Virus record (IMG/VR): IMGVR_UViG_2896607866_000003
Location: 1 to 11,346 of that record
Strand: one strand, 5' to 3'
DNA: 11,346 nt
Source: a virus
Taxonomy: Duplodnaviria; Heunggongvirae; Uroviricota; Caudoviricetes
The position numbers and the translations under genes are program-made. Within the stretch, counting starts at the first letter, position 1; the number at the start of each line of letters is the position of its first letter. Below, piece by piece: positions 1,532 through 2,277 of the stretch. Below the pieces are notes generated by a model. It ran no database searches. It saw nothing but the letters and a program-made list of their open reading frames with translations, and had not been told where the DNA came from.

Positions 1532-2200
1532 AAACTGGTAGGGCAGAAGTCTGGTGTTAACCCGAATATTTTTTACCTTCCGGCGACAAATGACGCCGAT
1601 GACGGCTATCAGGGTGATTACGATGGTGACTTCAACAGGGCGATCGAAACAGCCAATCGCTTGAGTGAAATCGACCTGCTTTACATCGACGACACGCCGG
1701 GATTATCTCTGGCTCAAATCGTCAGCGAAAGCCGTCGAATCAAGCGAGAAAAAGGATGTGTTGGCATGATTCTGGTCGATGACCTGACACTAATGACCGC
1801 TGAAAAGGCCGATCGCAACGACCTTGCCTACGGCATGATCACCAAAGGACTGAAGAACCTTGCCAAAGAGCTTGATTGCGTTGTTGTGCTTCTGACGCAG
1901 CTTAACCGCGCACTGGAAAGCCGAACCAATAAACGCCCATTACCAAGTGACTCACGAGATACAGGGCAGATTGAACAGGATTGCGATTATTGGGTGGGGA
2001 TCCATCGTGAAGGTGCTTTTGATGACAGTGTTCCACCTGGTGAAACCGAACTAATCCTTCGTCTCAATCGTCATGGCAATACCGGCACGGTGTATTGCAT
2101 TCAGGCAAATGGCGCTATTTATGACACAGACCAACAGTCTGCTGAAATGCGCCGACGTGAACGCGAGGAACCGCAGTCCAAGAAGAAAGGAGGATTCTGA
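1532..2200 (+). pseudogene. DnaB-family replicative helicase, 5'-truncated (C-terminal RecA-like domain only)
   Basis: The frame is open from the IS911 boundary; IDDTPGLSLAQIVSESRRIKREKGCVGMILVDDLTLM…LAKELDCVVVLLTQLNRALESRTNKRPLPSDSRDTGQIEQDCDYW resembles the E. coli DnaB C-terminal domain (IYIDDSSGLT…LIMIDYLQLM…LSQLNRSLEQRADKRP…SGSIEQDAD). No N-terminal domain or Walker A is present. Confidence 0.75.
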
Positions 2201-2277
2201 TGACCATCTACATCACTGAGCTTGTAACAGGCCTGCTGGTAATCGCAGGCCTTTTTATTTGGGGGAGAGGGAAGTGA
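2200..2277 (+). CDS. Candidate 25-aa hydrophobic peptide (MTIYITELVTGLLVIAGLFIWGRGK)
   Basis: Perfect SD AAGGAGG (2187-2193) 6 nt before ATG 2200; the ATG overlaps the helicase stop (TGATG) and its stop overlaps the next GTG start (GTGA). Predicted single TM helix. It contains the inverted repeat AGGCCTGC/GCAGGCCT (2229-2252) plus a T-run, so a terminator is an alternative reading. Confidence 0.4.
   Translation: MTIYITELVTGLLVIAGLFIWGRGK

Follow-up and report, generated by a model that had tools for sequence, protein, structure and literature searches.

The terminator tR2 of bacteriophage lambda lies on the rightward early strand, past the replication genes and ahead of the nin genes. According to the lambda literature, tR2 stops E. 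coli RNA polymerase, and N antitermination overrides this stop. The mini-gene ninA is found at the same site, and its family (phrog_5907) includes P22 ninA, lambda ninA, and HK97 gp56. In genome papers, ninA counts as one of the standard genes of the nin region; this region is non-essential, and overlapping ATGA stop/starts link its genes. In the curated P22 record, ninA (26 aa, CDS DAA01027.1) carries an internal terminator feature noted as 'L2; similar to phage lambda', and the corresponding feature of Sf6 is described as 'bsq6 boundary sequence / terminator'. Li et al. (2016; PMC4824070) reported that the ribosome-binding site and ATG of lambda NinA are active in a reporter. For NinA itself, they credit Kroger & Hobom (1982) and the lambda ribosome profiling of Liu et al. 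(2013), and initiation at the lambda ninA ATG during infection has been reported, as relayed by Li et al.

The window examined in the present study, a stretch of 11,346 nucleotides from a virus of the Caudoviricetes (IMGVR_UViG_2896607866_000003), contains this element on its plus strand. Positions 2226-2259 are identical, base for base, to the tR2 oligonucleotide AACAGGCCTGCTGGTAATCGCAGGCCTTTTTATT in the supplement of PMC4824070 and to lambda itself. The stem, loop, and U-tract are those of lambda, P22, and Sf6, and the position between replication and nin genes is the same. The window copy differs from lambda tR2 in no base, and is located in a fragment bounded by insertion sequences. The encoded peptide showed 100% identity to P22 NinA over 25 aa and matched phrog_5907 along residues 1-25 (E 1.2e-18). 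Both the coupling at the two ends and the internal terminator are shared with the NinA family. The NinA proteins of lambda and P22 have 26 aa, and that of the window has 25 aa because the GTG of the next gene overlaps its stop (GTGA) in place of the ninB ATG (ATGA). HK97 NinA differs in its hairpin and in its tail, which is longer and acidic. This 32-aa allele (HK97 gp56) is mislabelled 'histone H1' in many NCBI records of E. coli, Salmonella, and Shigella, which is a propagated annotation error.

A tblastn search with the peptide returned 421 phage records. The element occupies the ren-ninB interval in lambda and the gene 12-ninB interval in P22, and it was also found in Sf6, HK620, epsilon34, and Stx phages; related phages keep the ninA slot in the same place, after the replication genes and before ninB. 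A 'terminator' or 'tR2' annotation stands at the site in P22, Sf6, HK620, Nil2, Lahn2, and Lahn3, and the 26-aa forms carry the name 'NinA protein' in UniRef/NCBI. The lambda-type element was present in 1,978 of 5,426 complete E. coli genomes (approximately 36%). The 22-mer stem-loop string recurs in 15 papers, several of which are, by their titles, studies of RNA polymerase or transcription. Profile searches detected no Pfam or NCBIfam family for the NinA peptide, and a literature text search gave no match to the peptide string. When the stem motif was scanned over genome contigs with the loop as N8, the hits were mostly unrelated terminators from many phyla that have the same generic stem. 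On the basis of these identities, the element is very probably the lambdoid early-right-operon terminator tR2 carried within the mini-gene ninA, with N-controlled termination as its main function and a translated linker ORF around it. The 25-codon ORF and hairpin reported by the first-pass annotation were correctly observed and, as judged from this identity, represent an already known element. The result is of small consequence, as it re-identifies a terminator that is among the best known in bacteria and a phage mini-gene that already has a name.

The arrangement in the window is compact. The ninA mini-gene spans 2200-2277 (plus strand) and consists of 25 codons and a stop (MTIYITELVTGLLVIAGLFIWGRGK). 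Its Shine-Dalgarno (SD) sequence, AAGGAGG at 2187-2193, is contained in the sequence read from 2186 (AAAGGAGG) and lies within the last codons of the helicase gene (...KKKGGF*), 6 nt 5' of the ATG. The helicase stop (TGA, 2198-2200) and the ninA ATG (2200-2202) overlap by one base in TGATG. At the other end, the ninA stop (TGA, 2275-2277) overlaps a GTG (2274-2276) in GTGA; in VT2-Sakai, this GTG is the annotated start of H0101. The tR2 stem-loop, recognized by the terminator scan and by identity with lambda, occupies 2229-2252, in which the stem strands AGGCCTGC and GCAGGCCT enclose the loop TGGTAATC. Positions 2229-2236 pair with 2245-2252 (8 bp, 6 of them GC) around an 8-nt loop (2237-2244), and the local fold is approximately -15.7 kcal/mol. 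The U-tract TTTTTATTT follows at 2252-2260, and an RNA released there ends approximately 16 nt 5' of the ninA stop. The distances in the window, 30 bp from the AUG and 16 bp to the stop, match those published for lambda. The purine-rich stretch GGGGGAGAGGGAA at 2261-2273 is the SD region for the next gene and also encodes the 'basic tail' GRGK. The SD sequence, both overlaps, and the GC stem with its T-run, all listed by the first-pass annotation, are present in the sequence. The two-sided coupling of the small ORF was also confirmed, and the ORF is a recognized gene, ninA.

Taken alone, none of these features is beyond chance. The terminator scan of 1500-3000 found one terminator-like site, and 1.3 were expected in shuffled sequences. 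A 61-nt fold was no better than its shuffles (z = -0.45), and ORFs of at least 20 codons are abundant throughout the window. A consensus scan of both strands around 2186-2277 gave no promoter-like site, and no Rfam family was assigned to this interval. We consider the element to be real because it is identical to a characterized element and is conserved in hundreds of phages.

Approximately 350 related loci were collected from viral contigs, with either the hairpin or the N-terminal codons as the anchor. In these loci, ATGAC marks the exact start of the conserved module, before which seven different gene ends were found: two DnaB-like helicases unrelated to each other, Ren, an open frame of approximately 975 aa (called helicase-like from its C-terminal sequence alone), H0100, and two other small proteins. 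Each of the seven ends contains an SD core (GGAG, GAGG, or AGGGG) that finishes 5-9 nt short of the ATG; the background frequency of such cores in the same loci is 2.6% for random positions and 4.8% for positions preceding any ATG. The ninA frame is open in approximately 95% of loci, which include three hairpin alleles of the same length. The endings of the ORF vary (...GRGK, GRGKS, GRGKT, GRVNRG, GRGKCG, GRVIGGFKK, and GRG); the stop overlaps or abuts the start of the next gene in nearly all loci, whichever gene comes next. A stretch of the GGGGGAGAGGGAA type stands before every one of the differing downstream starts (ATG or GTG).

These observations bear on the simplest alternative, namely, that the ORF is a by-product of a compact terminator and SD module, with no meaningful translation. 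Codons 11-25 are explained by the stem, the U-tract, and the SD of the next gene, chance alone makes ORFs of this size common, and frame-breaking variants are tolerated. In addition, RefSeq/PGAP leaves the ninA ORF uncalled in approximately 2,000 complete E. coli genomes. However, an SD core with the right spacing was found in all seven upstream contexts, the module junctions fall exactly at ATG(A), the frame is open in most loci of all three alleles, and the lambda NinA start site was active in the experiments of Li et al. (2016). We regard this alternative as very improbable. The comparative evidence and the single published lambda reporter experiment support the view that initiation at the ninA ATG is real and selected. 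The argument for translation made by the first-pass annotation is thus supported by the SD in seven upstream contexts and by the lambda reporter; for the window copy, translation is inferred from these.

The mechanism in the window would be that of lambda, on the strength of sequence identity. RNA polymerase from pR would cross the replication genes, form the GGCCUGC/GCAGGCC hairpin, and drop its RNA in the U-tract unless it had been modified by N. In this manner, tR2 would gate entry to the nin-Q region. The same 78 bases would also serve as a translated linker ORF. Ribosomes that end the upstream gene, or that bind the SD in its last codons, would start at the ninA ATG, translate across the hairpin, and terminate at the overlapping start of the next gene. 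The ATGA-linked nin chain would thereby be kept continuously translated on read-through transcripts. Transcripts terminated at tR2 would contain a ninA ORF without a stop codon. The first-pass annotation had proposed that the hairpin may attenuate transcription instead of, or as well as, being part of a coding sequence. A transcription terminator alongside coding was the right proposal, since tR2 is well characterized and the sequence is identical to that of lambda.

The lack of a stop codon on terminated transcripts raises the possibility that the act of translating ninA matters and the peptide does not. Ribosomes would stall on tR2-terminated RNA, rescue by tmRNA would follow, and the cro-O-P-ren message would be destabilized, which would tie the replication genes to N. 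Li et al. (2016) found that an active NinA start halved the expression of an upstream reporter and that mutation of the RBS or the ATG restored it, and they attributed the effect to non-stop decay. The geometry of the window is identical to that of lambda, with the U-tract approximately 16 nt before the stop, and initiation signals under selection together with a weakly constrained peptide are consistent with this explanation. However, it depends on a single plasmid reporter, lineages with a broken ninA frame persist, and, in HK022-type phages, the terminator comes after a normal stop codon. We consider this explanation to be improbable. A broader proposal is that translation of ninA across tR2 is regulatory, with full-length NinA made only from N-antiterminated RNA and non-stop messages cleared by tmRNA so that the messages for replication and for the toxic P/helicase are coupled to antitermination, or, alternatively, that the conserved N-terminal peptide MTIYITEL(I/V)TG has its own target in the membrane. 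This is a tentative suggestion and unlikely.

A short translated ORF tied to an intrinsic terminator also recalls the leader-peptide attenuators of trp and pyrBI, in which the position of a ribosome on the ORF decides whether the terminator hairpin forms. The overlap of the ORF with the terminator fits such a scheme, and PMC4824070 describes reporter constructs in which a ribosome stopping a few bases before tR2 nearly abolished termination. In the native arrangement, however, NinA translation reduced tR2 efficiency by only approximately 10% (Li et al., 2016). These authors argued that the hairpin starts only 30 nt past the AUG, a distance too short for a ribosome to catch the polymerase. The MFE and centroid folds gave the terminator hairpin only, with no anti-terminator pairing, and ninA has no run of regulatory codons. 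Furthermore, the terminator of the trp and pyrBI attenuators follows the leader stop, whereas that of ninA lies inside the ORF, and control is exerted by N antitermination with a small effect of translation. Attenuation of the leader-peptide type is very improbable. Therefore, the attenuation of transcription suggested by the first-pass annotation holds in so far as tR2 is a genuine intrinsic terminator, but it does not appear to be controlled by ribosomes, given the small translation effect and the lack of an anti-terminator fold.

With an N-controlled terminator inside a translated linker as the preferred reading, the sequences were compared for constraint on the peptide and on the RNA. The stem encodes G-L-L...A-G-L, the U-tract L-F-I-W, and the SD of the next gene G-R-G-K. 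These three RNA or DNA signals fully account for codons 11-25 in the C-terminal part of the peptide, and much of its composition probably follows from them. Among 131 N-terminus-anchored loci of the lambda type, the most common change in the hairpin region was CTG to CAG at the first loop base. This change (L13Q, 8 of 131 loci) is neutral for the RNA but introduces a Gln halfway along the putative membrane helix. Six of the eight stem-changed loci in the same set had a C-to-T change that retained a G-U pair.

Codons 2-10 lie upstream of the stem, and anchoring on the hairpin leaves them unbiased. Across 213 hairpin-anchored loci, 7 synonymous and 10 non-synonymous distinct variants were found in these codons (P = 0.18); when restricted to variants seen at least twice, the numbers were 6 and 5 (P = 0.06). 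The replacements were mostly among I, V, L, and M. A synonymous excess was rejected as proof of selection on the peptide: it was striking by eye in four phages and was not significant in the 213 loci. An apparent synonymous excess in the other frames was also rejected as an artefact of stop-to-stop changes, those frames being closed. Residues 1-11 are identical in the consensus of every allele, which, together with the open and hydrophobic ORFs of the HK022 hybrid and the L218 contig described below, is a sign of some constraint on the peptide that is not decisive. We infer that constraint on the peptide itself is weak and, from the same comparisons, that the terminator is the dominant constraint on the overlapping DNA.

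Natural variants separate the hairpin from the frame. Three hairpin alleles, the lambda type, the common HK97 type, and a rare third type, occupy one slot with one length and with the frame kept. Only the HK97 and third types are related by a true compensatory pair, a double change from U-A to C-G. Covariation between the lambda and HK97 stems was considered and rejected, as the two stems are one base out of register (i+j = 83 vs 84). These stems are better seen as alternative hairpins in one slot, neither of which was derived from the other by compensatory changes.

The frame is broken and the hairpin kept in several lineages. O111 Stx prophages have a one-base deletion in the loop (TGGTAATC to TGTAATC), which keeps the hairpin (-15.2 kcal/mol) and cuts ninA to 13 aa. 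The deletion was located at L002:3436-3512, in a prophage of E. coli O111:H- 11128, and was found in exact form in 53 E. coli records. Five viral contigs have a one-base deletion in codon 2-3 that breaks the ninA frame, again with the hairpin kept, and a few nonsense or U-tract changes occur in ninA loci elsewhere. In HK022, as in 18 other phage records, ninA is split exactly after codon 10, just before the stem, by the gene of an HNH_3/AP2 endonuclease. The inserted gene (203 aa) lies at L111:3454-4199 and is also present in loci L011 and L083; PA28 and SH2026Stx1 are among the records that carry it. On its 5' side, the insertion produces a 34-aa hybrid hydrophobic ORF (MTIYITELIAGLSLLMVLTVYIIKYILYANKKTN) without a hairpin. 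The 3' remnant retains the tR2 hairpin, the U-tract, and the SD region after the endonuclease stop, with no ORF start before it. The converse is seen in the L218 contig, in which the stem is damaged and the U-tract interrupted, yet a hydrophobic 27-aa ORF is open (MTIYITELVTGMLVIAGLLFVCKQNRF).

The hairpin and the frame are each intact in approximately 95% of loci. Homologues that keep the hairpin and lose the frame, which the first-pass annotation had named as grounds for refutation, were found in the O111 prophages, the five contigs, and the HK022-type phages, but they are a minority of approximately 5%, and the outcome of this check is mixed. These loci show that the terminator can stand alone and that viable phages can do without an intact peptide. 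The HNH insertion and the O111 loop deletion are natural material with which the roles of the peptide, its translation, and the terminator may be told apart. As separate observations, the insertion of an HNH_3+AP2 endonuclease has the appearance of a homing event at the ninA/tR2 boundary, a highly conserved sequence, and the alternative hairpin alleles might be target-site variants for this endonuclease. The locus with the endonuclease at L111:3454-4199 also has, at L111:1064-3457, a helicase of the P22 gene 12 type with 797 aa in place of the usual approximately 458 aa, and its insert is intein-like by eye.

The hydrophobicity of the peptide led the first-pass annotation to propose a single transmembrane helix with a basic tail, a profile of small membrane-active or toxic peptides. 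Hydropathy was scored as the best 19-residue Kyte-Doolittle window, for which the usual transmembrane cut-off is 1.6. The allele of the window and lambda scored 2.03 and its L13Q variant 1.66, but the HK97 allele (1.52) and the third allele (1.29) were both under the cut-off. Hydrophobicity is borderline in alleles other than that of the window and lambda, and the basic tail GRGK is encoded by the SD region of the next gene.

A reading of NinA as a small membrane protein with a function, perhaps toxic or membrane-active, that merely has its DNA in common with the terminator would be in line with the hydropathy of the lambda-type allele, with invariant consensus residues 1-11 in which substitutions are mostly synonymous or I/V/L/M, and with the selection of an SD in every upstream context. 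The HK022 hybrid and the L218 ORF, which have no good terminator, remain open, hydrophobic, and basic at the end. Several findings oppose such a function. The synonymous excess is not significant at either threshold, L13Q is frequent, and the hydropathy falls below the cut-off in two alleles. The frame is broken in the O111 prophages, in the five viral contigs, and by nonsense changes elsewhere. The entire nin region is non-essential according to published work, the promoter scan and Rfam search at the locus found neither a promoter of its own nor an antisense partner, and Li et al. (2016) reported no toxicity with the lambda segment expressed from a plasmid. A functional membrane protein is rather unlikely.

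Type I toxins (Hok, Ldr, TisB, Ibs, and ShoB) resemble lambda-type NinA in their length of approximately 25 aa and in a hydrophobic stretch of membrane length. In contrast to these toxins, NinA has no promoter or antisense RNA of its own; its gene is part of an operon and is coupled to the genes on either side. Its hydrophobicity is not kept in all alleles, and its frame is often broken. NinA lacks every defining feature of type I toxins except hydrophobicity. The profile of a small membrane-active or toxic peptide was not supported, because codons 11-25 are set by RNA signals, hydrophobicity is borderline in the most common other allele, L13Q is frequent, and the nin region is dispensable. 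To our knowledge, no toxicity is known for NinA.

The surroundings of the element in the window differ from those of an intact phage. An IS600-like element of the IS3 family occupies 267-1530 (plus strand; the left boundary is approximate), and its right end truncates the helicase gene. The 3' fragment of this gene (1531-2200, plus strand) comprises approximately 223 C-terminal codons of a DnaB-like helicase of the Stx-phage type (phage 'P'; Pfam DnaB_C, E 1.7e-38). It is 98.8% identical, from 1531 on, to the P/helicase gene of VT2-Sakai and the O111 prophages. Downstream of ninA, the 5' part of the next nin-region gene (2274-2503, plus strand), a VT2-Sakai H0101 homologue (phrog_343) with a GTG start, is split at 2504 by a complete IS2 (2504-3834, plus strand, 1331 bp) flanked by a 5-bp target duplication (GCAGT at 2499-2503 and 3835-3839). 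The 3' end of the H0101-like gene resumes at 3840-3888, and NinB follows downstream on the same strand at 4499-4945. Homology to Stx-phage DNA in this part of the window extends from 1531 to 2503 only. Missing from the window are the 5' part of the helicase gene and all that lay upstream of it, including the immunity region, which contains pR and nutR in related phages. The window copy of tR2/ninA is most likely a prophage relic between IS600 and IS2, as judged from this context, and whether its tR2 is active is probably irrelevant.

Minor observations were made on the same region and on a distant part of the window. The helicase-ninA interval of the closest Stx phages contains an 89-aa gene, H0100 of VT2-Sakai (L001:3170-3439), which is absent from the window. 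ATGA is found at both junctions of H0100, and the coupled chain is therefore unbroken with or without this gene. The direct helicase-ninA junction of the window is common elsewhere, with the same helicase end abutting ninA in 52 viral contigs. At 5856-6053, three RNA families scored above the Rfam gathering score, namely, c4-a1b1 (5856-5908), isrK (5869-5942), and C4 antisense RNA (5969-6053). These matches lie just upstream of two antirepressor-type genes at 6106-6792 (ORF6N/P22_AR_C) and 6861-7589 (Rha/ANT), and the region from 5856 to 7589 looks like a C4 immunity module in the style of P1/P7.
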